This document shows, in pieces, positions 14,702 through 29,265 of a stretch of 64,000 nucleotides of DNA. The stretch spans positions 48,102 to 112,101 of the forward strand of contig DATBWR010000011.1 in NCBI GenBank assembly GCA_036514715.1. Reading direction: 5' to 3'. The notes below the pieces were generated by a model. That model was given only the letters and a program-made list of their open reading frames with translations, had not been told where the DNA came from and did no database searches. The translations under genes were made by a program, and so were the position numbers. The stretch is from Candidatus Nanoarchaeia archaeon. GTDB taxonomy: Bacteria; Patescibacteriota; Microgenomatia; Woykebacterales; RBG-16-39-9b. Every line of letters starts with the position of its first letter. Position 1 is the stretch's first letter.

Positions 14702-15388
14702 GTGGAAAAACTGCAGCGCAAATACATGCTATCTCGTGAGACTCCTAAGATGGGTCTTGCCGAGAAAACCAAAATTCTCTCCTCCTTCCCTATGTTCGAA
14801 GAGACCTCGACCGCAGAACTTAAGGAAGTAGCCACTAAAACCCAACCTGAAGCTATCCTCCCTATGGAAGTTTTTGTGGAGGAAGACCGTGACGAGCACC
14901 AGGCCTATTTCCTTTACCAAGGCGCTGTCTCGGTTTTTCGAACCACCAGCGAGGGGGAGATTATTAACTTAGATCTTCTAGGCGCTCCTAACCTAGTTGG
15001 TGAGGTGGGGTTAATTGAAGATAAGTCAAGCCCTGCCAGTATTATCGCCATCGAAGAAACCCGAGCACTTGTACTTTCTCAAAAAGATTTTCAGGCCCTT
15101 GTGAATAAAAATCCTAAACTGGCCCTAAACTTACTCAAAGTGTTTGCCGACAAAATGCGCGATTTTGATCTTTTTATTGAAGAGCTCCTCTCTAAAAATC
15201 TGTACGAGCGCACCTGGAACATGCTCCAGTTTGTCTCTCAGTATTTTCCCAAAAGGGAAATTACTCTATCGCAGGAACAGTTGACCGATCTTCTCTGGGG
15301 TACAAGATCAAGAGTGACTGAAGTTCTCAACAAACTTGAGACAGAGGGAAAAATAAAAATTGGTCACCGGAAAGTAAAGGTTCTTTAA
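14702..15388 (+). CDS. Crp/Fnr-family transcriptional regulator
   Basis: cNMP-binding-like beta-roll region followed by a C-terminal HTH ('LTDLLWGTRSRVTEVLNKL'). Confidence 0.7.
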   Translation: MEKLQRKYMLSRETPKMGLAEKTKILSSFPMFEETSTAELKEVATKTQPEAILPMEVFVEEDRDEHQAYFLYQGAVSVFRTTSEGEIINLDLLGAPNLVGEVGLIEDKSSPASIIAIEETRALVLSQKDFQALVNKNPKLALNLLKVFADKMRDFDLFIEELLSKNLYERTWNMLQFVSQYFPKREITLSQEQLTDLLWGTRSRVTEVLNKLETEGKIKIGHRKVKVL

Positions 15389-18097: not shown

Positions 18098-18925
18098 CTA
18101 GATACTTGAGCGGATTCGGTTGATACGTTCCGCCAACAGGGCTAGAGCTTCTTCCACTTCAACACCGTTGCGGCGCAGGATCAGACCAGCACCAATCAAA
18201 GCCAAAGAGACTACTACCAACAAACGAAACGGGTAGTCAAAACCAGTTATGGGTAGAGTTTTAGCAGCTGCCAAAACTGAACCAGGGGTCGGCAGAGGTC
18301 CTGGACCCTCACCCGGAGCTGGTGGTTTTAAGGCACCAATAATAATCTCGTTGAAATTGCCGGCGTTGTCAATATTAACGTTGATCCAAGCGTTTCCAGT
18401 TTTTATCCAACCGTTACCGCCGGTATTACCGCTAAGTGAGTTACCGCCGGTGTTAGCTCCCAACCAGAAGTTGTTGTCAATATCAAGCCATTTCGCATCG
18501 TATATGTTCAGGTTGTTATTAAAGTTTAAGGTAACTTTGTTGTCAGAGTCAGCTCCGTTACCCGAAACGCTCACGGCCGCGTCAATCGGATCGCAACAAC
18601 CAAGTTTAATTTTGTTAGCGTTAAGAGAGTTGTTAACCGTCAAATTAGTGGTTGCGTCTCCGGTAGTGATACCAACATCACCACCAGTGTTGTCCTCAGC
18701 CTCGTTATTACCGGTGTTGGAATTGGCCTTAACCGAGTTGTCAACGTCAGCATTGTTAGTCTGAACAATCTCAGTTTCTCGGCTCACATTAAAGTTTGCC
18801 TCATTATCTGAGTCGGCGCCGTTTCCGGAAACTTCAATAGTGAAGGCTCGGGCGCTAGATGCTGAACTTAATAATAGGGCAAGGGTGAGCAGGAGGACAG
18901 GCAAGAGAAATTTCGCCTTTTTCAT
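18098..18925 (-). CDS. secreted repeat protein with LPxTG-like sorting signal (surface protein family A)
   Basis: Signal peptide, two copies of the 'SGNGADSDN...NTG.NEAEDNTGGDV.ITTGDA' repeat, and C-terminal 'LPITG' plus hydrophobic stretch plus RR. Confidence 0.65.
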   Translation of the reverse strand: MKKAKFLLPVLLLTLALLLSSASSARAFTIEVSGNGADSDNEANFNVSRETEIVQTNNADVDNSVKANSNTGNNEAEDNTGGDVGITTGDATTNLTVNNSLNANKIKLGCCDPIDAAVSVSGNGADSDNKVTLNFNNNLNIYDAKWLDIDNNFWLGANTGGNSLSGNTGGNGWIKTGNAWINVNIDNAGNFNEIIIGALKPPAPGEGPGPLPTPGSVLAAAKTLPITGFDYPFRLLVVVSLALIGAGLILRRNGVEVEEALALLAERINRIRSSI

Positions 18926-18950
18926 AAATTACGGGCCTCCTTTCAAGGAC

Positions 18951-21155
18951 CTAGGCAGTTCTACGTCTTATTACCAGTAAGGCGTAAGCAGCTAGTACTA
19001 ATAAAGCTCCTCCTAACAAGAGTAAATTGAAAGAGAATTTTCCATTGGCACCGCCGTTAATCACTTTTGTGACCGGATTTTCGTTTTGAGTGGAAAGAGC
19101 ATTTTCCAAAATCTTACCGCCTTCTTCCAAAGCAGCCCCTAAGCTGGCTCCAGACAGCGCAGAAGTTTTGGATTTACCGCTAGTTATGCTGGTTCCGGCA
19201 GGTAAGTTAACACCACTGGCAACTCCATTTCCACCAACTGGACCACCGACCCCTGCCGGAATTTCTTGATCCGGTGGTACGATATTGCCGGTAAAGCTCC
19301 CAAAGACGTTCACGAAAACCAGCATTAGTTTTTTGCCGATAAAGTTGTTGTTGACAAAGTTAACGATGTTGCTGGCGACGTTAACATCACCAGTGTTAAT
19401 AGTGGCACCGCCCATATTACCATTAGCGTCGTTGTTACCAGTGTTGGCAGTAATATTAACGTTGTTGTTAATAAGGGCGTTGTTAGTCTGGTTAATCGTG
19501 GTTGAGTTACTGTTGTTAACTGATGCACCGTTAGTGGAGTCAGACCCATTACCGCTGTTGAGAGCGTAAATCGAACCATCTGGATTGAAACCAAATTCTA
19601 AAGTCCCCCCATCAATTAAGGCTCCGTCAGCGGCGCCGATAATTTGGCCGGTGTAGGTGCCTTGATTATTAACAATTACCAGCCACCAAGTGTCCCCGGC
19701 ACCAACCGTGTTGGTGTTGGCTACAGTTACCAAATTAGAGTTAACGTCCACGCCTCCGGTGGTCACTGAACTGTCGCCCATGTTCTTGTTGGCATCGTTA
19801 CCACCAGTGTTAGCGTTAATGTTTAGATTATTGTTAATCAGGGCGTTATTAATTAGGTTTATGTCAGTGGTATTGGTGTTTGTAACCGAGGCATCGTTCT
19901 CGCTCCCTGAGCCGTTACCGGTGTTTGTAGCAGTGATATCGGCCGCACAGCCGCAACTAGAAAGATCGGCTTCTCTTGGAAGAATAATATCACCGGACAT
20001 ATTGCCAAAAATGTTGACTGTGCCGATCAAAAGTTCAGCTCCAGCCATAAAAGTATTGTTGAGAAAGTTAATAATGTTGGAAACAATGTTGGCGTCTCCG
20101 GTTTCAATAACACCCGCACCCATGTTTTTGTCGGCTTGATTGCCTCCTGTACCAGCGTAAAGGTCAACGTTGTTATCCAAAATGAGGTTGTTTTCGCTGA
20201 CAAGGTTAGTGGTTGAACTATTATTAACGCCTGCAGTGTTGGTCGAGTCCGCTCCGTTGCCCGTGTTACCCGCACCCAACACTCCACCATTTCCGCTTCC
20301 TGTACCAGAGGGCCAAGTGATGTAAAGGTCTTCGCTTTGGTTATCAACGATATTGAAGTTAACAACGTTGGGATTAACAAGCGTGTTGCTACCCATATTG
20401 ACCGTGGTAAAGACTACGTCAGCATCCCCACTAACAATTACTCCGTCACCCATGTTTTTGTTGGCTTCGTTGCCTCCTGTGCTGGCGCCAACGTCTTCGT
20501 TATTAACTAAGTAGAGATCGTTAACATTACTAACATTAGTTGTTGAGTTGTTATCGATGTCAGCGTTGTTGGACGATCCGGAGCCATTACCAATGTTATT
20601 GGCTTCAAGACCACCAGTACAACCGCCACAACCATCGTTCAAGTTAATAATTGTAGTGTTTAGGTTGTTAGTTAAGTTACCATCAACGCTAGCATCGCCG
20701 GTGTGGATTACCCCAGAGCCCATGTTTTTGTTGGCATCATTTTCACCAGTCTCAACATCAACAATAATGTCATTGGTAACATCAGCATTATTTGAAGCTT
20801 CTACATCCGTTTCGTCAGTGACATCAACTTCACTATTATTATCAGAATCAGCTCCGTTACCGCTGTTGGTTGCTTCTGCTTGTGGTTGGTTCGTTCCCCA
20901 AGTGCTTCCTCCACTCCCACCGCTATCAGTTCCTGTAGTTGCTTGAGAGCTCGCTCCAGCATCTGGAGGCGGGCTCATCCAGGAAGGTAGGGCCGGAGAA
21001 TCCGGAGTTGCCGGTGTGCCCGTCGGTGTACTTGGAGCAGTTGGAATAGCCGGCGAACTTGGAGTGGCGATCGCCAAGGTAGCAGCCGGATAAACCATGT
21101 TTGCAGCAATCAGAGCTGCACTTACCAAAGATTTTACTTTTAGATATTTATTCAT
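18951..21155 (-). CDS. large secreted Asn/Gly/Asp-rich repeat protein (family A paralogue), C-terminal TM anchor with basic tail
   Basis: Signal peptide, about 8 repeats containing 'GNGADS.N' and 'TGGN.A.KNMG.GVI.TGDA.V', C-terminus 'LLLLGGALLVLAAYALLVIRRRTA'. Confidence 0.65.
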   Translation of the reverse strand: MNKYLKVKSLVSAALIAANMVYPAATLAIATPSSPAIPTAPSTPTGTPATPDSPALPSWMSPPPDAGASSQATTGTDSGGSGGSTWGTNQPQAEATNSGNGADSDNNSEVDVTDETDVEASNNADVTNDIIVDVETGENDANKNMGSGVIHTGDASVDGNLTNNLNTTIINLNDGCGGCTGGLEANNIGNGSGSSNNADIDNNSTTNVSNVNDLYLVNNEDVGASTGGNEANKNMGDGVIVSGDADVVFTTVNMGSNTLVNPNVVNFNIVDNQSEDLYITWPSGTGSGNGGVLGAGNTGNGADSTNTAGVNNSSTTNLVSENNLILDNNVDLYAGTGGNQADKNMGAGVIETGDANIVSNIINFLNNTFMAGAELLIGTVNIFGNMSGDIILPREADLSSCGCAADITATNTGNGSGSENDASVTNTNTTDINLINNALINNNLNINANTGGNDANKNMGDSSVTTGGVDVNSNLVTVANTNTVGAGDTWWLVIVNNQGTYTGQIIGAADGALIDGGTLEFGFNPDGSIYALNSGNGSDSTNGASVNNSNSTTINQTNNALINNNVNITANTGNNDANGNMGGATINTGDVNVASNIVNFVNNNFIGKKLMLVFVNVFGSFTGNIVPPDQEIPAGVGGPVGGNGVASGVNLPAGTSITSGKSKTSALSGASLGAALEEGGKILENALSTQNENPVTKVINGGANGKFSFNLLLLGGALLVLAAYALLVIRRRTA

Positions 21156-21296
21156 TCGTGTTCTTAAACTTTCAAATTCTAATTAGAACAGCCTCTTAAA
21201 CCACTCTAACTAAACTTCGAACTTCGTCCTTACCCTTTGGCTTCCCCTGGGCCCGCCCTCAAAGGGCGGGCCCAGAGAAAAGACCAACCTAACTAC

Positions 21297-22574
21297 CTAG
21301 GTGCCCCAGTGTCCTAAAAGGAGTAAGATCCACCCGTTCAAATCGTCCAGGTCAGGAAGATCCGGAAGGTCCGGAAAATCCACATCTCCTAGAACGTTTG
21401 AGTTAGCTTCAGTGCTGACTTCAACATCAGCTCCAGCATCACCGGTTTCAATAGTTGGATCCTCACCACCTTGGGTGTTATCCTTAGCGTCATTGTCACC
21501 AGTGTTGGAGTCAACGTCAACGTCGTTGCAGTCACTGCCCCTACCGTGTCCTCCCCCAAAGGAGGAGAGGAAACCTTGAGGGCCACCGTCGCAGTCATAG
21601 TCATTGGTTTGTTGAGCTGCCAAAAGTGCTTCTAGTTCAACGTTAACCTCATTCTCAGAATCAGCTCCGTTGCCAGCGATTTTAATTTCGCCAACAAGTT
21701 CGCAGCACTCATCGAGATTAAGACCGTTGAAGTTAGCTTCGTTACTGACACCAACTTCGACATCGGCATCACCAGTGTCGATTGCAACATCACCACCAGT
21801 GTTGTCTTCGGCTTCGTTGTTGCCAGAATTGGCGTCAACGTCAATGTCGTTCTCAATATCAGCGTTGTTTTCTTGAAGAACTCCAACTAAGCTAGCTACT
21901 CCCACGTTAGCGGTGTTCTTGGAGTCAGATCCGTTACCGGAAATTTCCACATCAATAGAACCACCGTCGCCGCCTCCAATGGAAGCAACGTTAGAGTTGA
22001 CCATATTCTTGACGTCAACCACTACGTCAGCATCACCAGTTTCGATCTCAACATCACCGCCGGTGTTGTCTTTAGCATCGTTGTCACCAGTGTTGGCATC
22101 AACGTCAATGTCGTTATCGACTTTGGCTTCATTGGTCTGCTCCACACCAACTTCTGAAATAAGTTCAACGTTGGCTTCGTTTTCGGAGTCTGAACCATTA
22201 CCGGAGATTTTGACGTCCAGATCACCAGGACAACCGCCACAAGACAAAGAAGCAACGTTGGAGTTAGCGCTGTTGGACACAGAGCTACTCACGTTAGCAT
22301 CCCCAGTGTCGATGGAAACATCACCACCAGTGTTGTCTTCAGCTTCGTTGTTGCCAGAATTGGCGTTAATCTTAACGCTATTATCAATGTCGGCGTTATT
22401 GGTTTGGACGAGTGTCGTGCTAGTGCTCACAGATACGTTAGCGGTGTTAGTCGAATCGGATCCATTACCACTAACGGTAACGGAAGTAGTTCCGAATGCA
22501 ACAGATGCTACGCTCCCTGTTAGCAAGGCTGCAGTAGAAACTGCAGTTGTTAGCTTGTATACTAGTTTGTTCAT
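21297..22574 (-). CDS. secreted repeat protein (family A paralogue)
   Basis: Signal peptide, 4-5 repeats of about 75 aa ('ISGNGSDS.N.ANV...NTG.N.A.DNTGGDV.I.TGDADV'), acidic DLPDLPDL tail. Confidence 0.65.
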   Translation of the reverse strand: MNKLVYKLTTAVSTAALLTGSVASVAFGTTSVTVSGNGSDSTNTANVSVSTSTTLVQTNNADIDNSVKINANSGNNEAEDNTGGDVSIDTGDANVSSSVSNSANSNVASLSCGGCPGDLDVKISGNGSDSENEANVELISEVGVEQTNEAKVDNDIDVDANTGDNDAKDNTGGDVEIETGDADVVVDVKNMVNSNVASIGGGDGGSIDVEISGNGSDSKNTANVGVASLVGVLQENNADIENDIDVDANSGNNEAEDNTGGDVAIDTGDADVEVGVSNEANFNGLNLDECCELVGEIKIAGNGADSENEVNVELEALLAAQQTNDYDCDGGPQGFLSSFGGGHGRGSDCNDVDVDSNTGDNDAKDNTQGGEDPTIETGDAGADVEVSTEANSNVLGDVDFPDLPDLPDLDDLNGWILLLLGHWGT

Positions 22575-22932
22575 TTACTATTCACCTCCTTTCGCAAAGA
22601 TATATTCAATTCTTTTTTGGAATTTCTTTTAATTTGTCTGGACACTTTCATGTAGATAGTAATTCTTCTTTGCTTAAACGAAAACGGAGGCAAACCTTCA
22701 CGCTTTTCATTAGCGTAAAAGCTTACCTCCGTTTGCGGTCGGTAAATTACTTAAACTAACAGTATTTAATTTCTAGGGCAGAAATAGGTAGGTGTGGTGT
22801 TACCGAAAAGAATTTTAGCCTACCAATAAATATTATGTGTGCTTTTTCCCAACCTGTCAAGTCCTGTAATTTTATTCAAAAAGGCCTTAATCTTACTAAC
22901 GAACCGGTCTTCTTTTTGTTACCTACGACCCT

Positions 22933-23136
22933 TTACCGCACCCGCCTTATGGCGCTGTTGTAACCTTCGGCCTTGACACTGGCAGTCTTTTTGATCGTCC
23001 TCTCGGTGATCTGAACCACTCTCCCTGACTCAATGTAAATTTCTACACTACCATACTCTTTGCTAACAATAGCTTCTTTAATTTCGTTTAAAATGCTTTC
23101 CGGCAGACTGTTGGCAGACATAGTTTCGTTCATCAA
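22933..23136 (-). CDS. small protein, DUF2292/YezD-like
   Basis: '..EYGSVEIYIESGRVVQITERT..' resembles the YezD family core 'GSV.I.vqdG.VvQIe'. Confidence 0.4.
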   Translation of the reverse strand: MMNETMSANSLPESILNEIKEAIVSKEYGSVEIYIESGRVVQITERTIKKTASVKAEGYNSAIRRVR

Positions 23137-23137
23137 T

Positions 23138-23755
23138 TTATAGAGAAAACTCTAAAACTACTTTTTCTGAATTGAGCTCGCCGATTTCAACTTTAAACTT
23201 GCTTTCCCCTTTGGGGATCACAAAACCAACGTTCGATGTTTTGGTTGACTGCGGGCGGATTTCCACATTACCCTGATGAGCAGTTGGTGCATACTTTTTA
23301 TCGTCATCGCCGATCAAACGGAAACTGTCAACCGGTTGTAAGTAAAGGGGCACGTTGTAAGGGTTGGAAAGTTCCATGTTAATAATTAAGAACTCCTTGC
23401 CGTTTCTGGCAATGACCCTTTGCCCTTGTACGAGCAAAGAGCCTGCTTTATAAGTGCCGGTAACATCAACGCTAATATCACCGTTAGTGTTCCTGCCGTC
23501 TTTAGTTTTGGCGGTTACTTCAAATTGCTGTGAAAGCCCCAAAACGTTGGGAGCCTCATTTGAAGAGTTGCCGCTAAAGAAAATAGTGTAGAGACCAAAG
23601 GCAGCCAGCAAGGTAAGGACTGTAAAGAAGATGCGGCGCGGTTTTGAGAAAAGGTAGACAAGCAAATTTTTGGATCCGGAAAAAATTCCAGAAAGAAAGG
23701 GTATTGAAAAGCGTCGGCGGACAACTTGCGCAGGAACAAAAGTTGTTACATTCAT
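23138..23755 (-). CDS. hypothetical membrane-anchored exported protein
   Basis: Start set at 23755 (ATG, AAAGGAAAA upstream). N-terminal TM, beta-rich extracellular domain. Confidence 0.4.
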   Translation of the reverse strand: MNVTTFVPAQVVRRRFSIPFLSGIFSGSKNLLVYLFSKPRRIFFTVLTLLAAFGLYTIFFSGNSSNEAPNVLGLSQQFEVTAKTKDGRNTNGDISVDVTGTYKAGSLLVQGQRVIARNGKEFLIINMELSNPYNVPLYLQPVDSFRLIGDDDKKYAPTAHQGNVEIRPQSTKTSNVGFVIPKGESKFKVEIGELNSEKVVLEFSL

Positions 23756-24108
23756 TAACAAATTTTCCTTTCTCTTCAAAATGCAAAAGCCAGCTTTAGG
23801 ACAGACTAAGTCTTTGGGCCGGCAGTGACTTTTAAGATCAAATCGACAATAAAAGTACCACAACAATATAGTATAGTCAAGAGGTTGTCAAGAGTTTTGT
23901 TTGGCTAATTTTTGCCTCATGGTTTCACGAGGAAAATTACTTACTAATCTAAGGAAATTCAGGTGTAAACAAATAAGCGCCCGCTCCATACCTAACCCTT
24001 ACATTATATATATGGGACTCGAAGACGAATCCAGTTTTCTCATTACTTCGAAAATAAGTTCCTACTTGAAACAAGTGGGTCGTTAAGGGGTCTGGTTTCG
24101 CTGACGGA

Positions 24109-24196
24109 AAGTAAGCCTCTAAGATAGAGGACTTCATTGCTTCGCAAAGTAAGCTTCTGAGATAAGAAAGCTTCATTGCTTCGCAAAGTAAGCCCG
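24109..24196. repeat. about 38-bp tandem direct repeat (2.3 copies) in a 600-bp intergenic region
   Basis: aagtaagcctctaagatagaggacttcattgcttcgca / aagtaagcttctgagataagaaagcttcattgcttcgca / aagtaagccc. Confidence 0.5.
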
Positions 24197-24300
24197 TTTT
24201 TCTGTAAGGGAGTCTAATCCTCCTAATAATACTAATATAATAGATATATTAGTATTAGCTGAATGGCTTTCCTTCTAGGCGTACAAGACATCTTTGGGAA

Positions 24301-24336
24301 AACAAAAAGCTCTGAAAGGGAATTCAGAGCTTTTTG
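24301..24336. terminator. bidirectional rho-independent terminator
   Basis: AAAAAGCTCTGAA-aggg-aaTTCAGAGCTTTTT, directly after the stop of 24363..24713 (minus strand). Confidence 0.55.
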
Positions 24337-24362
24337 CGTTAGGTTGATCTTTTCTCTTTTTC

Positions 24363-24713
24363 TTACGGACCAGGCGGCGGAGCCGCGTTGGAGTTAACGT
24401 TGTTGGTGATAGTTACCGTCACCGTGGAGTCACCAGTGTCAATACTCACATCTCCATCACCAGTGTTGAAACTAGCCTTATTACCACCAGTGTTGGAAAC
24501 CGTTATCACCCTGTTTTTGACACGAGCTACATTAATTTGAACAGTAGCCGACTTGTTCACTACTTTAATACGGCAGCGGTTGTGCGAGAAAGCGCCGTTA
24601 TCGGTAATGGTACAAGTGTTACCATCATCAGCTAGAGCAGCTGGAGCCAGTAACATACCAGCAGTAAGGGCTGCACCAGCAGTTGCTCCGACACGAGCAA
24701 TCAATTTATTCAT
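24363..24713 (-). CDS. small secreted protein carrying one family-A repeat unit
   Basis: Signal peptide 'AAALTAGMLLAPAALA', then '..NTGGNKASFNTGDGDVSIDTGDSTV..'. RBS GAGGAGGTG upstream. Confidence 0.6.
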   Translation of the reverse strand: MNKLIARVGATAGAALTAGMLLAPAALADDGNTCTITDNGAFSHNRCRIKVVNKSATVQINVARVKNRVITVSNTGGNKASFNTGDGDVSIDTGDSTVTVTITNNVNSNAAPPPGP

Positions 24714-24760
24714 TCATAATCACCTCCTCTCTAAGAAGTGTACTTTTGTTACGACCTTCA

Positions 24761-24795
24761 CTACTATAGGTGTCCACCTCGGGGGTGTACATTAC
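24761..24795 (-). promoter_or_regulatory. conserved palindromic upstream motif, copy 1
   Basis: cactactataggtgtccacctcgggggtgtacatt, about 50 nt upstream of the 24713 start. Near-identical copy at 28240-28273. Confidence 0.45.
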
Positions 24796-24838
24796 AAAAA
24801 TGCCAACAACAAGGTTGTCGTTGGCTTTTTGATTTTTC
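24796..24838. terminator. rho-independent terminator downstream of the RTX-repeat gene
   Basis: GCCAACAACAA-gg-TTGTCGTTGGC hairpin flanked by A/T runs. Confidence 0.5.
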
Positions 24839-24909
24839 AGAGCAGTTAGAGCAGTCATGGCAGTTTTAGTTTTAACTTCTTACTTCATACTTCACACTTC
24901 TTACTTAAT

Positions 24910-26046
24910 CTAAGGTAGTTCGCATTTAATCAGCGTTTCTCCAGTGGTACAAGTGTCGATTCCGGAATTCCCGTTCAGATTGTCGGTTCCCGGACCACCG
25001 TCAAGTGAGTCATTGCCCGAACCCCCTTTGATATTGTCATTGCCGTTTTCCCCAAAAAGTTGGTCGATACCACTGCCACCGTCAATGTTATCGTTTTGGT
25101 CTCCGCCAAAGATTTGGTCGTTATCGCTGCCGCCTTTAATATTGTCTTCTCCCACTCCGCCGGTGATCTGGTCATCGCCGCTGCCCCCGTCAATGGTGTC
25201 GTTGCCAATCCCACCGTCAATCAAGTCGTTGCCAGACCCGCCTTTCAAATTATCGTTGCCTTCTCCGCCGACCACCAAGTCGTTACCGCTGCCACTGTCA
25301 ATAGTATCGTTGCCACCCTCACCCAAAATCACGTCGTTACCGCTGCTGTCGTTAACTCGATCGTTACCTTCACCGCCGACAATACAGTCATTACCACTAC
25401 CACCGTCAACCCGATCATTGCCCTCCAGAGCAAAAATCAGGTCGTTATTAGGTGTACCACGGATACGGTCGTTGCCGCTGGTTCCGAAAATTGGGTCACC
25501 GGTAAAATCAATGTCGTCGCAATCTTCGGGCGGGGCAATAACTATGCCAATAGAAAGGTCAAAAACAACAGTCGCCGTCTGAAATTCATTACCGGCACTT
25601 TGGGGAAAACAAACTGTGAAATCGTAATCAAAATTTTGACCAGAGTTGAGGTTACCCAAACTCAGGGCGTTAGGACCAGCGCTATCAGTGAAAAATTGGT
25701 CCAGAGTCTGTGGACCGTAAAGGCTGGTGGTTGTCGTAGAGTTTTCGATTTCGATTTCCAGAACCGACCCCAACGCAAGGTCTTCGTCGGTTTTTACACC
25801 GCGTACGCCAACTTCGCGGGTGACGGCTCCGGTATTAAGCACGTTGACTGTGCGGGTTTCACAATCCCCCGGTTTCATGTCATTGACCACAAAAATTGGA
25901 TCGCCACTGGGAACTCCCCAATCAATATCCAAATCCCCGACTGCCCGCACTGTGCTGGGGAACAAAGCATTAGCCACTGCCACGCTGATAAGTGCCAGTG
26001 TCAAAACCCCTATTCTAATAACCTGAAACTTTCTGTTTTTCTTCAT
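24910..26046 (-). CDS. secreted protein with RTX-type calcium-binding nonapeptide repeats
   Basis: More than 15 tandem 'GG.GND.I.' units (GGSGNDLIDGGIGNDTIDGGSGDDQI...). Signal peptide. Start overlaps the stop of the upstream gene by 4 nt. Confidence 0.75.
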   Translation of the reverse strand: MKKNRKFQVIRIGVLTLALISVAVANALFPSTVRAVGDLDIDWGVPSGDPIFVVNDMKPGDCETRTVNVLNTGAVTREVGVRGVKTDEDLALGSVLEIEIENSTTTTSLYGPQTLDQFFTDSAGPNALSLGNLNSGQNFDYDFTVCFPQSAGNEFQTATVVFDLSIGIVIAPPEDCDDIDFTGDPIFGTSGNDRIRGTPNNDLIFALEGNDRVDGGSGNDCIVGGEGNDRVNDSSGNDVILGEGGNDTIDSGSGNDLVVGGEGNDNLKGGSGNDLIDGGIGNDTIDGGSGDDQITGGVGEDNIKGGSDNDQIFGGDQNDNIDGGSGIDQLFGENGNDNIKGGSGNDSLDGGPGTDNLNGNSGIDTCTTGETLIKCELP

Positions 26047-27230
26047 TGGTCACAATTTCCAAACTCAGCTGTAATGGCGTCAATATCGAAACCATCTGCG
26101 TCTGATGTATGTGAATTGGGAAATGGTGTACTCTCCGTTAACCTTACGAACTTAATTGACGAAAGTCCTGTCCCAGAAAAACCCAACTCACTAATACCAT
26201 CGCCACCAACACCTGGTTCGCTAGTAACGTTACCTATGTTGTAATAAGTTATCCCATCCTGACTGACCTCAACTGTGGCTTGTTCTAACGGATATGTTGC
26301 TCGTCCGTTAGTTGCTTCATAAAAAGTAAGTATCGCAGGACCAACATCGAGAATTTGGTATGGAAAAACATAGGTGGCTACACCAGTATAAAACCCAAGA
26401 CTATAAAATCCTGTACTTCCACCAATAACCCAATCTTTTATTAATGCGGCATTGGGATCAGTTCTAGCCGGATTAGTTATTGGCGACCCATTTTTCAAAG
26501 TTCCTTGAGTTGTTTCCTCATCGATGTAACTAGCTAGTAGAGTTGGGTTCTCGTCGCAAAAGGCTTCGGCAGCAGAAAATACATTATTAGTACTCGTTTC
26601 AACATCACTGAAAAACGCGTGGGAGCTTCCCAAAAATATTGCGGCCATGAAAAACATCGCAAAAGGTTTAGCAAAGTCTAAATTGCTACTTTTCTGTGGT
26701 TTTTTCTTTAATTCTTCCCAAATGGAAATTAATTCGGAAATAATTATTAATAAGGTGGGAATGATTATCAGCAGGAAAAAGCCTAAGGGTTGTTTAACAA
26801 AATCCACAAACCTTCCAACATAAGGAACAGAAAGGTTAACTCTGCCAACCACGTCTTTCTCAGCAGTCAAAGAGCTGTCAGGGTCTTCGTTAGCATCTCC
26901 CTTTGTTTCAAACATTTTCTCGCCAGTGGCGCGATCCACTCTTACTACCCGGTGACTGACTAGCTCACTACCGGATTTAAAAGTGACAATATCACCTTCA
27001 ACGTAATTTACTCCCGCACCATCAAGGGGCTTTTTAGTTACAAGCACTAGGGAACCAGCCGGAACAGCGGGCTCCATACTGCCTGTCTTTACCACTAAAG
27101 GTTTTAGCGGTAAAGGCAAATTTAAGTACGCACCGATTGTCAGCAGCATAATGCTGCCAAACACGAGCAGTGTAGTTAATTTAAGTGTCGTTAGTAATAC
27201 TTTCAAACCTATACTCCAAATCCTTGACAA
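26043..27230 (-). CDS. SipW-type (S26B) signal peptidase I fused to a SipW-cognate signal peptide plus TasA-like substrate domain
   Basis: N-terminal half: TM, 'KTGSMEP' (Ser), 'VSHRVV' (His), 'KGDANEDPD' box, second TM. C-terminal half: 'KKKPQKSS..FAMFFMAAIFLGSSHAFFSDVETSTNNVFSAAEAF', which matches the SipW-cognate signal class, then about 190 aa. Confidence 0.7.
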   Translation of the reverse strand: MSRIWSIGLKVLLTTLKLTTLLVFGSIMLLTIGAYLNLPLPLKPLVVKTGSMEPAVPAGSLVLVTKKPLDGAGVNYVEGDIVTFKSGSELVSHRVVRVDRATGEKMFETKGDANEDPDSSLTAEKDVVGRVNLSVPYVGRFVDFVKQPLGFFLLIIIPTLLIIISELISIWEELKKKPQKSSNLDFAKPFAMFFMAAIFLGSSHAFFSDVETSTNNVFSAAEAFCDENPTLLASYIDEETTQGTLKNGSPITNPARTDPNAALIKDWVIGGSTGFYSLGFYTGVATYVFPYQILDVGPAILTFYEATNGRATYPLEQATVEVSQDGITYYNIGNVTSEPGVGGDGISELGFSGTGLSSIKFVRLTESTPFPNSHTSDADGFDIDAITAEFGNCDQ

Positions 27231-27343
27231 GGCCGGGCCTTGTCACCACTTGTCACCAACAATGCAGCTTTCCTCTTCGAGGTCCGAGGCCCCCAAGGTC
27301 CTCTTTGCTGTCCAAGGGGGCCTTAACTTTCAAACCTCGGACT

Positions 27344-28207
27344 CTAGAACCCTAGTTTCGAAGGGTTATTCCTGTGCTGAACCACTTGGAAGGACATGTT
27401 CGCTACCAAACTGTCTGTCTCGATTACATTACCAACACCTTCCGGAAGTTCCCAATCAATACCGAAGTAATAAGTTGTACTTCCAACCATACGTCCGTCT
27501 GATACAATCCCTGGGCTAGCTCCTTGGAGAGCGAAAACGGCAGCTAATCCTTGCCAAATGTTATGCGTTTCACTACCTGCATCAAGTGTACCTTGGGAAA
27601 CTAGCTCTGGTTCTTCTGCCTGTTTAATGTTGTCACCTTCTTGTGGGTCAGCACCACATTCAGCACCTAACCCTGAACACTGGAACCCATTGTTAGTTCC
27701 TTCATCTAACCAAATGCTGAACAGAAGATTTTCACGTAATTCCCCACTTGCTACTCCGTCAGGATCGCCTGCTTCCAATTCCTCTTGAAGGTAGGTGTTC
27801 TCTAGATCTTGAACACTGTTAATCACTAATCTTCCCCAAGCGTCGTTGTTAATAACGTGGAGACTGATTGTATTCTCACCACTATCACCAGGCTTGAGGT
27901 CGGAAAGATTGAAGAATTTGTGTGTTGGACCCAAGTCTGTTTGTGCCCAAGTACCGTCACAAGGATCACCCACCAAATCTGGTCGACTTGAACTTGTAGC
28001 TTCAAACTGCCATTGACTACTGGAATTACAGACTAATCCTGCGTAGTGGGCCTCGCTGTCAACCTTTAAGTCAAGACCTCCGGCCGAAAACGTGTTGCCA
28101 GTTGAAGTTTCACTATCGGTGAAGAAGGCGAAGGTGGCACCGATTAAGAGGGCTGCGGCGGCCGCGATCGTCAGACCGCTTGTTACCAATCTTTTGTTGA
28201 TTGTCAT
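27344..28207 (-). CDS. TasA/camelysin-like secreted protein with SipW-cognate class signal peptide
   Basis: 'KRLVTSGLTIAAAAALLIGATFAFFTDSETSTGNTFSAGGLDLKV' matches the SipW-cognate signal consensus (..GTFAyFSDtE.StgNtFtAGtLDL). Confidence 0.75.
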   Translation of the reverse strand: MTINKRLVTSGLTIAAAAALLIGATFAFFTDSETSTGNTFSAGGLDLKVDSEAHYAGLVCNSSSQWQFEATSSSRPDLVGDPCDGTWAQTDLGPTHKFFNLSDLKPGDSGENTISLHVINNDAWGRLVINSVQDLENTYLQEELEAGDPDGVASGELRENLLFSIWLDEGTNNGFQCSGLGAECGADPQEGDNIKQAEEPELVSQGTLDAGSETHNIWQGLAAVFALQGASPGIVSDGRMVGSTTYYFGIDWELPEGVGNVIETDSLVANMSFQVVQHRNNPSKLGF

Positions 28208-28239
28208 TTATTTATTCACCTCCTCTCATATGATCTATA

Positions 28240-28273
28240 ATCACTATAGGTGTACACCTCGGAGGTGTACATT
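28240..28273 (-). promoter_or_regulatory. conserved palindromic upstream motif, copy 2 (GGTGTACACCTC-G-GAGGTGTACA)
   Basis: atcactataggtgtacacctcggaggtgtacatt, about 35-65 nt upstream of the 28207 start. Perfect 10-bp inverted repeat TGTACACCTC/GAGGTGTACA. Confidence 0.45.
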
Positions 28274-28591
28274 CTATTGTAAGGGTTAATAATAGATCGC
28301 TAAAGCGTTCTGCGCTTGAAGACAAGCTTAAGTATGAAGTCATAAGTTAAAACGATTAGAACCCTGTTTTGTTATCTTTTTGGCAACAAAAAAGCCACGC
28401 GTGAGGCGTAGCCAACAGAAAAAAGCTTAGAATGTTTCGGGGCGAGGAACCTGAACAAAACAACTCCAATTCTCGGGCAAGAATTTATATTGTTTTATAT
28501 GGGGCAGAACCGTATGCAGTATACCTTAACCCCAAGCTTGGGTGTCAATTAGATCTAACTAGATCAAATTACTTGCCATATCAATCAGCAA

Positions 28592-28620
28592 CCAAGCGGG
28601 TCTGAGTTTAATTATTTTGG
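28592..28620. repeat. 29-bp direct repeat, copy A (flanks the TA cassette)
   Basis: aagcgggtctgagtttaattattttggaa, identical to 29151-29179. Further partial similarity (attaattagg.ttatg.gg) about 20 nt downstream in both copies. Confidence 0.6.
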
Positions 28621-28664
28621 AAGGTTAAGCCGTGGAAACTATTAATTAGGTTATGAGGTTGCGA

Positions 28665-28871
28665 TTAGCTAGTTTGAGTTTCGAAGAAATGTAGGGTTTT
28701 GGAGGGAACTCGATCTTTAACACCGATAATTTCAATTCCAAGCGGACGCCCGTCTTTGTCATAATCAACAAAAACTTCGTCTGAAAGTTCTTTAGTTTCA
28801 GCTACAGACGTCTTTTTATCAGTTAAATAGATGTAGGCTGCGTCAGCTTTTGGGTCGTAACGAACGTTCAT
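28665..28871 (-). CDS. DUF2283-family protein (putative antitoxin)
   Basis: 'MNVRYDPKADAAYIYLTD..VDYDKDGRPLGIEII' matches the DUF2283 core 'YD.eaDalYI.l....DyD.dGrlvGIEil'. Confidence 0.7.
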   Translation of the reverse strand: MNVRYDPKADAAYIYLTDKKTSVAETKELSDEVFVDYDKDGRPLGIEIIGVKDRVPSKTLHFFETQTS

Positions 28872-28873
28872 AG

Positions 28874-29137
28874 TTATTGAGTCCTTTTCAACTTACTAAT
28901 CCAGTGAGCAGTGATAACGATTATACCACTTTCTTTTTTGGTAAACACTATTTTTAAAAATCTACCGTCAAACTTCCTTATCGCAATTTGACGACCGCCT
29001 CTTGCTGGCAGAATAAGGTCTGGGCTTTCTACAGTTTCTGCAACCTGATCCCTAGTAATATTTCTTTCCTTAAGTCTAAGTTCTGCGTGTTCGGTAAGCT
29101 TAACCACAGGAAAATTGTAACATAAAAGAAAACCCAC
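28874..29137 (-). CDS. DUF4258-family protein (putative toxin)
   Basis: 'LTEHAELRLKERNITRDQV..VE..........R.......LKIVF.....IIVITAHW' matches the DUF4258 pattern. Sits 3 nt upstream of the DUF2283 gene. Confidence 0.7.
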   Translation of the reverse strand: MGFLLCYNFPVVKLTEHAELRLKERNITRDQVAETVESPDLILPARGGRQIAIRKFDGRFLKIVFTKKESGIIVITAHWISKLKRTQ

Positions 29138-29150
29138 ACTTTTAAAAGAA

Positions 29151-29179
29151 GCGGGTCTGAGTTTAATTATTTTGGAAAA
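29151..29179. repeat. 29-bp direct repeat, copy B
   Basis: Identical to 28592-28620. Confidence 0.6.
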
Positions 29180-29265
29180 ATAAACCTTAGCAGAGATTAA
29201 TTAGGCTTATGGGGGTTAATCTGCTCATCTCGTTTGTCAAAAACTTTAACAAACGAGTGAAAAGA

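Follow-up and report, generated by a model that had tools for sequence, protein, structure and literature searches.

A 21-nucleotide palindrome conserved upstream of a TasA-like fibre gene and a small secreted-protein gene in Patescibacteria as a candidate leader-RNA element

A stretch of 64,000 nucleotides (nt) of contig DATBWR010000011.1 (GenBank assembly GCA_036514715.1), hereafter the window, contains two copies of a palindromic sequence, one upstream of a gene for a TasA-like fibre protein and the other upstream of a gene for a secreted protein of 116 amino acids (aa). The best explanation of the data is that the functional unit is the 21-nt palindrome TGTACACCTC-N-GAGGTGTACA (TGTACACCTCNGAGGTGTACA as one search string), rather than a 34-nt block. 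The palindrome is a real, selectively maintained cis-element, modest in its regulatory role. Tentatively, it can be understood as a stem-loop of the leader RNA that may affect mRNA stability or translation, and this reading is favoured over that of a DNA operator.

Copy 1 (24763–24793) and copy 2 (28243–28273) share 29 of 31 positions, with a blastn E value of 6.7e-8 in a comparison with the whole window. The near-identity of the two sequences, the perfect inverted repeat in copy 2 and the placement of both copies ahead of strong ribosome-binding sites of secreted-protein genes had been proposed in a preliminary description of this DNA and were borne out, with a shared alignable block of about 31 nt instead of about 34 nt. 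Read on the forward strand, the palindrome of copy 2 is TGTACACCTC-G-GAGGTGTACA (28251–28271), and the self-complementary GGTGTACACC is present in the same region at 28249–28258. Copy 1 keeps 8 of the 10 arm pairs; both of its differences break the dyad symmetry and are uncompensated, giving A·G and C·A mismatches on the gene strand. Both genes feature the Shine–Dalgarno (SD) site GAGGAGGTG followed by ATG, and both proteins have N-terminal signal sequences, as judged by eye from the translations. The GGAGG core of the TasA-like gene's SD site lies 27 nt downstream of the copy 2 palindrome. The TasA-like assignment also holds (Pfam PF12389, E = 1.2e-8; TasA-family names among the homologues).

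Each copy is located between an upstream intrinsic terminator and a strong SD site. The T-tract of the 24825..24802 terminator stops 4 nt before the copy 1 palindrome and 2 nt before the shared block. Pattern searches with mismatches found no third copy in the 64-kilobase (kb) window; for the 34-nt pattern with up to 3 mismatches, 0 matches are expected by chance. Perfect palindromes with 10-nt arms number 7 in the window versus 0.6 expected from Markov simulations, and by inspection the remaining ones resemble terminators or other intergenic hairpins.

Homologues of the 116-aa protein gave access to syntenic loci in six related species. In the pair of loci L132/L133, which share about 69% identity with the window over alignable DNA, the perfect palindrome TGTACACCTC-N-GAGGTGTACA stands at both corresponding places, before the TasA-like gene and before a 112-aa gene, 7–13 nt past the terminator T-tract and 19 nt ahead of the GGAGG core of the SD. 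When the four copies from the window and L132 are aligned, the invariant columns are exactly the 21-nt palindrome, and conservation does not extend to the AA and CCTATAGT flanking the window copies; the CCTATAGT extension, common to both window copies, is missing from L132. Over the 20 arm positions, copy 2 and both L132 copies do not differ, and copy 1 matches at 18. Since the palindrome is invariant at both loci at such divergence and the flanks are not, one of the two functions proposed earlier, a common operator or an RNA hairpin, is very probably right.

The distribution of the palindrome among relatives is patchy. Comparison of orthologous upstream regions, as suggested in the preliminary description, showed it to be kept in L132/L133 and absent in L134 and L136–L138, as well as upstream of the closer TasA orthologues of L005 (74% protein identity), L009 (62%) and L010 (58%). 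The locus L135, 87% identical to L132, is without a copy ahead of the small gene; at TasA it carries a decayed form (AAACTGTACACTCC...GGAGTG), which reads CACUCC/GGAGUG and whose homology to the palindrome is uncertain. In L132 the inserted DNA forms a clean block of about 37–40 nt, and GAAA may be duplicated at its ends. The two palindrome sites of L132 share flanking homology (the terminator tail GTTCTC and AAAGAAnGGAGGTGA), and in each genome the small gene's copy was probably derived from the one in the TasA leader. Apart from 2 copies in the window (64 kb) and 2 at the L132 locus (16 kb), about 100 kb of other related loci yielded none. The palindrome is neither a dispersed repeat nor part of a coding sequence in the relatives examined, the two outcomes considered fatal in the preliminary description.

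Wider searches gave no additional sites. Viral, phage and plasmid collections contained no relevant match to the palindrome. A scan of genome contigs with TGTACACCNCCGAGGTGNACACC, a pattern whose trailing CC would miss L132-type copies, gave two chance matches in coding sequences of high-GC genomes. The metagenome contigs were scanned with ACACCNCCGAGGTGNACACC, a poorly chosen pattern. The window organism's own contigs were not among the matches listed; those listed were in coding sequence only ('..YT.EV.T..' by eye), at loci of 52–73% GC and with unmatched flanks. A literature search on TasA plus Patescibacteria returned nothing on this motif. The exact window sequence is also present on a metagenome contig of 301 kb (k141_2229922) and on contigs from JGI and Logan, identical across both motifs, the source being groundwater samples (ENA ERZ27254864, JGI 3300025146 and 3300025164), and the strain variants L001–L004 show no difference across either motif, so that they carry no information on polymorphism.

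The relatives also indicate how the sites are placed relative to transcription. In L132 the sole recognisable promoter is about 170 nt upstream of the palindrome, with the terminator in between. No usable sigma-70 promoter overlaps the L132/L133 palindromes, and the hexamers found in L132 at a distance of 17 nt from TGTACA, TGCGAT and TTCCAT, are not usable −10 boxes. In L134, L135, L136, L137 and L138 the terminator of the small gene runs directly into the SD; the palindrome is absent and there is no room for a promoter. In L010 the TasA SD follows 22 nt after the leader terminator. Hence, these genes must rely on read-through of the terminator, which makes the gap from there to the SD a transcribed leader. 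At TasA this gap is about 150 nt in the window species versus 20–60 nt in relatives. We infer that the palindrome is transcribed in the window species as well.

These data do not support the earlier framing of the sites as lying at the promoters of two transcription units of a surface-protein regulon. The −10-like TATAGT is confined to the window species and its 9/12 promoter score is no better than chance, the small gene depends on read-through in five relatives, where the SD directly follows the terminator, and only two sites were found, the cluster's remaining genes for secreted proteins (425, 734 and 275 aa, DUF4352 and S8 protease) being without the motif. The coordinates of the features are collected in Table 1.

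Table 1. Positions of the palindrome copies and surrounding features in the window
Feature	Position	Strand	Basis
Copy 2, perfect 10-1-10 palindrome TGTACACCTC-C-GAGGTGTACA (gene strand)	28251..28271	-	sequence reading, alignment
Copy 1, imperfect palindrome TGTACACCCC-C-GAGGTGGACA (gene strand)	24771..24791	-	sequence reading, alignment
CCTATAGT extension of copy 2, with −10-like TATAGT 17 nt from TGTACA	28243..28250	-	
CCTATAGT extension of copy 1	24763..24770	-	
SD GAGGAGGTG and ATG of the TasA-like gene (27344..28207)	28205..28225	-	
SD GAGGAGGTG and ATG of the 116-aa secreted-protein gene (24363..24713)	24711..24729	-	
Intrinsic terminator at the end of the conserved TasA leader, followed by copy 2 after about 120 nt	28393..28413	-	
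Intrinsic terminator after the RTX-repeat gene	24802..24825	-	
Third segment resembling a half-site, GTACACTTC, adjoining the SD of the 116-aa gene on its 5′ side	24735..24743	-	
24-nt segment AAGTATGAAGTAAGAAGTTAAAAC	24869..24892	-	
Inverted copy of the 24-nt segment AAGTATGAAGTAAGAAGTTAAAAC, between leader terminator and copy 2	28330..28353	+	
Minus-strand order, part 1: leader RNA and terminator (28413..28393), copy 2, TasA-like, SipW-like, RTX-repeat gene		-	
Minus-strand order, part 2: terminator (24825..24802), copy 1, 116-aa gene, DUF4352, DUF2292		-	
Minus-strand order, part 3: 425-, 734- and 275-aa genes, then CAP		-	

As a leader-RNA element, the palindrome would be situated past a leaky or regulated intrinsic terminator, 19–43 nt upstream of the GGAGG core of the SD, and would fold into a stem-loop of 9–10 base pairs (bp). 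Its 5′ arm and centre form the anti-SD heptamer CACCUCC, and its 3′ arm mimics an SD (GAGGUG or GGAGGUG). In read-through or processed mRNA, such a hairpin ahead of the SD may block 5′-to-3′ decay, leading to more of the abundant fibre-subunit message, and/or set the accessibility of the SD. In copy 1, a second anti-SD segment, GUACACUUC (24743–24735), is predicted to pair with the real SD and could alternatively pair with the 3′ arm of the palindrome, which would result in a four-segment switch.

The observations behind this reading are the position of the palindrome, its invariance across species, the stability of the fold and the read-through architecture in relatives. The predicted hairpin energies are −11.7 kcal/mol for copy 2, −11.9 and −21.1 kcal/mol for the L132 copies and −6.1 kcal/mol for copy 1; pairing continues over arms of 15 nt in the L132 copy that precedes the 112-aa gene. 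On the minus (gene) strand of the 64-kb window, CACCTCC occurs inside the palindrome only, and GGAGGTG occurs 7 times, at least 4 of these being SD sites of minus-strand genes. By our own estimate, the chance of an SD match of at least 6 nt in a random 10-nt arm is about 1%. Over the whole window tRNAs alone pass the Rfam gathering threshold, and a permissive Rfam search of 22500–28800 gave only chance matches far below the threshold.

The real SD is predicted to be paired in copy 1, where the GTACACTTC segment pairs with it (probability of being unpaired, P(unpaired), 0.01), in L135 and before the 112-aa gene of L132; the pairing is weaker in L137 (P(unpaired) 0.18). At the same place L135 has CCACCCCC, which pairs with the real SD GGGGGUG (P(unpaired) 0.0), and L137 has a different hairpin, UGGGAGA-CAAA-UCUCCCA, with SD/anti-SD-like arms. 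In L139, which represents a different genomic context, a hairpin is located beside the SD, with weaker predicted pairing (P(unpaired) 0.51).

Several points weigh against a stem-loop function. The sample consists of four copies from two species; there is no covariation, compensatory changes not being seen across these copies. Both changes in copy 1 break pairs and account for its low stability. The outer TGTA/TACA is conserved exactly while lying outside the SD mimicry, which looks more like recognition by a sequence-specific protein. In copy 2 and in L132 the local hairpin is far stabler than the pairing of the 5′ arm with the real SD, so that the palindrome would not act as a switch by itself. 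Finally, a TGTACA-17-TATAGT promoter in the window species could leave most of the palindrome untranscribed.

Further hairpins were observed within the operon. A second perfect 10-1-10 palindrome, TGACAAGGCC-C-GGCCTTGTCA (27225–27245), is found 5 nt upstream of the SD and the TTG start (27206) of the SipW-like gene. Most species compared carry a differing GC-rich hairpin just 5′ of the SipW-like SD, the structure being kept and the sequence not; L134 has none. A long hairpin, GUCCGAGG..GGCCCC-loop-GGGGCC..CCUCGGAC (27282–27342, minus strand), directly follows the stop codon of TasA, and its sequence is conserved in seven species (including L132, L134, L135, L137, L010 and L005), down to 58% identity of the TasA protein. 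It is probably a 3′ stabiliser or an attenuator separating TasA from the SipW-like gene. Taken together, the hairpins before the SipW-like SD and after the TasA stop show an operon punctuated by RNA hairpins, a point in favour of the leader-RNA reading.

The strongest competitor of the leader-RNA stem-loop, in our view somewhat unlikely, is a DNA operator by which a putative dimeric helix-turn-helix regulator would co-regulate the TasA-like operon and the 116-aa gene. A perfect dyad of 21 bp is typical in size and symmetry of the sites of such dimers, and what is conserved is the sequence, beyond the structure: 100% at two loci each in species about 69% identical in alignable DNA. Copy 1, keeping 18 of 20 arm positions with non-compensatory changes, behaves as natural operator variants do, and the third half-site-like segment GTACACTTC lies close by. 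A regulator gained in some lineages and lost in others would be in keeping with the patchy distribution, and Crp-like (14702–15388) and MerR-like regulators are encoded in the window. There, the dyad spans −35 to −15 of TGTACA-17-TATAGT and a bound protein would occlude the promoter. In L132, however, the distant promoter beyond the terminator makes repression of initiation impossible, and the operator would have to work as a roadblock. An operator would leave the anti-SD/SD sequences of the arms to coincidence, at the estimated level of about 1%, and in the 16–64 kb read per genome no regulator gene stands in synteny with the motif in both species. Sites of Crp/Fnr have the form 5-N6-5 or 5-N4-5 and those of NtcA the form GTA-N8-TAC; the geometry of the palindrome is unlike these and unlike MerR site patterns, and the MerR-like gene, at a guess from its sequence, looks like an HspR-type heat-shock regulator. 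A dual role in DNA and RNA, by analogy with the controlling inverted repeat of chaperone expression (CIRCE), is possible.

The assumption that the 31-nt block is a sigma-70 promoter cassette (−35 TGTACA, 17-nt spacer, −10 TATAGT), duplicated before two genes and with an incidental or secondary dyad, appears quite improbable. The two window copies agree fully in the hexamers and in the distance between them, and their shared block stops just past each hexamer; copy 1 immediately follows a terminator, which is a sensible place for a new promoter, and the longer terminator–SD gap at TasA in the window species would suit one too. Yet the −10 hexamer is not kept in L132 while the palindrome is, and TGTACA-17-TATAGT is a 9/12 match without the TTG of the −35 box. 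There are 27 such sites in 14 kb versus 17.7 ± 4.6 expected by chance, and three credible promoters of the cluster begin with a perfect TTGACA. The 24-nt segment AAGTATGAAGTAAGAAGTTAAAAC and its inverted copy (22 of 24 positions identical) demonstrate that the two intergenic regions exchanged sequence, apparently recently, which accounts for the shared CCTATAGT and flanks without selection. It is the chance-level hexamer match together with the unconserved −10 that makes a promoter a weak explanation, and one that could apply to the window species only.

It is very improbable that the palindrome is selfish or mutational in origin, i.e., an insertion resembling a repetitive extragenic palindromic (REP) sequence or a miniature inverted-repeat transposable element, or an inverted duplication of an SD region, with no regulatory role and spread by gene conversion between similar terminator–SD gaps. 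The patchy distribution, the missing and decayed sites of L135, the clean block inserted in L132 with its possible GAAA duplication and the resemblance of the arms to an SD in inverted copy are all in line with this origin. On the other hand, the copies are few and always at the same two loci, the complete identity of the core at about 69% identity of alignable DNA argues for purifying selection, and the viral, phage and plasmid collections gave no match.

Four other identities were considered and rejected. A plus-strand promoter of the T7/SP6 type (the motif reads ATCACTATAGG) would have its conserved part downstream of the would-be +1, its −17..−8 region is not common to the copies and there is no plus-strand gene to transcribe. 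A leader peptide encoded by an upstream open reading frame (uORF) would start from the pseudo-SD, which is buried in the stem, and the copy ahead of the 112-aa gene in L132 lacks a canonical start codon. Short frames do follow the pseudo-SD (GUG/UUG 5–13 nt past GAGGUG, running across the real SD, and an ATGA overlap in L132 TasA); by our own estimate this uORF pattern is at about chance level, and it was dropped. The palindrome copies flank the 3.4-kb TasA-SipW-RTX operon; a recombination site around this cassette was rejected, with the gene order identical in relatives without the palindrome and the inverted 24-nt segment not located where an inversion between palindromes would place it. An opposite-strand terminator would need a T-tract, and there is none on either side.

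The TasA leader upstream of the palindrome is itself conserved. It occupies 28393–28548 (minus strand) in the window, 4631–4790 in L132 and 4772–4975 in L134, and is also present in L135, L137 and L139. Its promoter has the form TTGACA-N19-TATA(A/C)T; the unusual spacer of 19 nt recurs in L139 and in 5 of 7 TasA leaders, and it often includes a small dyad. The leader contains a hairpin UUCU(C)-..GCCC..-(G)AGAA (28483–28470 in the window), followed by a conserved box UGCCCUA(A/G)CAAAYUCUGAAAA and then by the intrinsic terminator, which abuts the SD in some species. This arrangement looks like a protein-dependent attenuator. The leader has no Rfam match, and a covariance model built from five leaders gave weak matches (E 0.03–0.5) to mini-leaders before 112-aa genes. 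The gene for the 425-aa repeat protein shows the same design at 22685–22860 (minus strand), with a TTGACA promoter, the hairpin UUUCU-GCCC-UAGAAA (22784–22770), a strong terminator (22731..22685) and then about 100 nt to the SD. Because of this shared design, the true common feature of the surface-protein cluster may be the leader type, not the palindrome, and the leader-terminator architecture may be a more rewarding lead than the palindrome.

In a broader and, as we judge it, unlikely version, the palindrome would form a single module within a multi-layer leader system, so far undescribed, that controls genes of TasA-type fibres in Patescibacteria. Its layers would be the TTGACA-N19-TATAMT promoter, the leader with the GCCC-loop hairpin, the regulated terminator and the anti-SD/SD decoy hairpin, the last being read by a specific protein or by the 30S subunit, so as to couple terminator read-through to translation or mRNA stability. 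Such a system would be a new class of translational or stability switch in organisms with very few known regulators. To our knowledge, almost nothing has been reported on gene regulation in the Candidate Phyla Radiation/Patescibacteria, which are not growable alone and have few regulator genes. TasA-like fibres probably play a central part in their attachment to hosts or surfaces. A cis-element unchanged between distant species can serve as bait for a binding protein and as a marker of co-regulated genes, and the palindrome offers a test case of RNA-level control (terminator read-through plus leader hairpins) versus classical operators in Patescibacteria. Were it merely an mRNA stabiliser, the result would be ordinary, still of use in annotation.

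Homologues of the TasA-like protein come, where the source is named, from Woykebacteria, Levybacteria, Woesebacteria and other Patescibacteria. An identical 116-aa protein is labelled by NCBI as originating from a 'Candidatus Nanoarchaeia archaeon' metagenome-assembled genome. The gene content (GatCAB, PolA, RNase HII, L19, SipW/TasA) and the best matches point to bacterial Patescibacteria/Microgenomates, and the archaeal name is likely a taxonomic mislabel.

The 116-aa protein shares its repeat module with the neighbouring 275-, 425- and 734-aa proteins. This secreted repeat-protein family (275, 734, 425 and 116 aa, encoded at 18098–24713) is built of modules of about 88 aa with the consensus GNG(A/S)DS.N...N.A...N....ANTG.N.A..N.GG.V.I.TGDA.V., and none of the four proteins has a Pfam match. 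The 116-aa protein is a single repeat module; its L139 homologue is located in an unrelated genomic context, yet shows the same leader design. Between the 116-aa and DUF4352 genes lies a tandem repeat (24105–24193, unit of about 38–44 nt, gcttactttgcgaagcaatgaag...), which varies in copy number or sequence between samples (L002 and L003 versus the window) and is the sole difference among these strains over 5–6 kb. Upstream of the operon, direct repeats at 28594–28650 and 29149–29205 (57–63 nt, 82% identity) exactly bracket a DUF2283/DUF4258 gene pair (28665–29137). DUF4258 is a BrnT-like toxin, the pair is missing from the syntenic loci of the relatives, and it looks like an inserted toxin-antitoxin cassette. 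The hexamer TGTACA occurs 6 times in the window, 3 of these inside the two motif copies, versus about 18 occurrences expected, by our own estimate, from the base composition; it is thus avoided elsewhere, possibly through restriction-site avoidance.

Among known systems, the SinR and AbrB proteins control the tapA-sipW-tasA operon of B. subtilis. Both there and in the window a TasA/SipW fibre operon is under dedicated cis-regulatory control; the SinR site GTTCTYT is unrelated to the palindrome in sequence, and no SinR-like gene was found near the TasA locus. REP sequences and bacterial interspersed mosaic elements are likewise short perfect intergenic palindromes beside terminators with a patchy distribution among relatives. 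However, they are present in tens to hundreds of copies, mostly 3′ of genes, while the palindrome has two copies, 5′ of the SD, at conserved loci. CIRCE, the HrcA-bound inverted repeat TTAGCACTC-N9-GAGTGCTAA found ahead of chaperone genes, is likewise perfectly conserved and located in the leader between the transcription signals and the SD. It works both as a DNA operator and as an mRNA element, the very ambiguity that the palindrome presents. The sequences differ, as does the geometry (9-N9-9 versus 10-N1-10); the genes behind the palindrome are not chaperones, two sites were seen and no link to HrcA was found. CIRCE is the closest precedent for a conserved leader palindrome read as DNA and RNA.

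RNA thermometers (fourU and the repression of heat-shock gene expression element, ROSE) sequester the SD in the leader, and the STAB-SD of B. thuringiensis cry3A is a single-stranded SD-like leader sequence. Such leaders share with the palindrome anti-SD or SD-like sequences placed as hairpins upstream of the real SD; in the palindrome, unlike in the SD-sequestering leaders, the anti-SD pairs with a decoy and not with the real SD. Stabilising stem-loops are known from the ompA leader and the processing of papBA in E. coli and from the aprE and ermC leaders of B. subtilis. In these cases, as here, a stable hairpin stands shortly upstream of the SD of a highly expressed gene for a structural or secreted protein, in an operon with internal terminators and hairpins, and the expected effect is a differential mRNA stability of the major fibre subunit. 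Unlike the palindrome, stabiliser hairpins are not known to be conserved in sequence between distant species or to be composed of an anti-SD/SD pair. By sequence the palindrome is a member of none of these families, and in its working it appears, by analogy, closest to the stabiliser hairpins of 5′ untranslated and intercistronic regions and to the SD/anti-SD leader structures.

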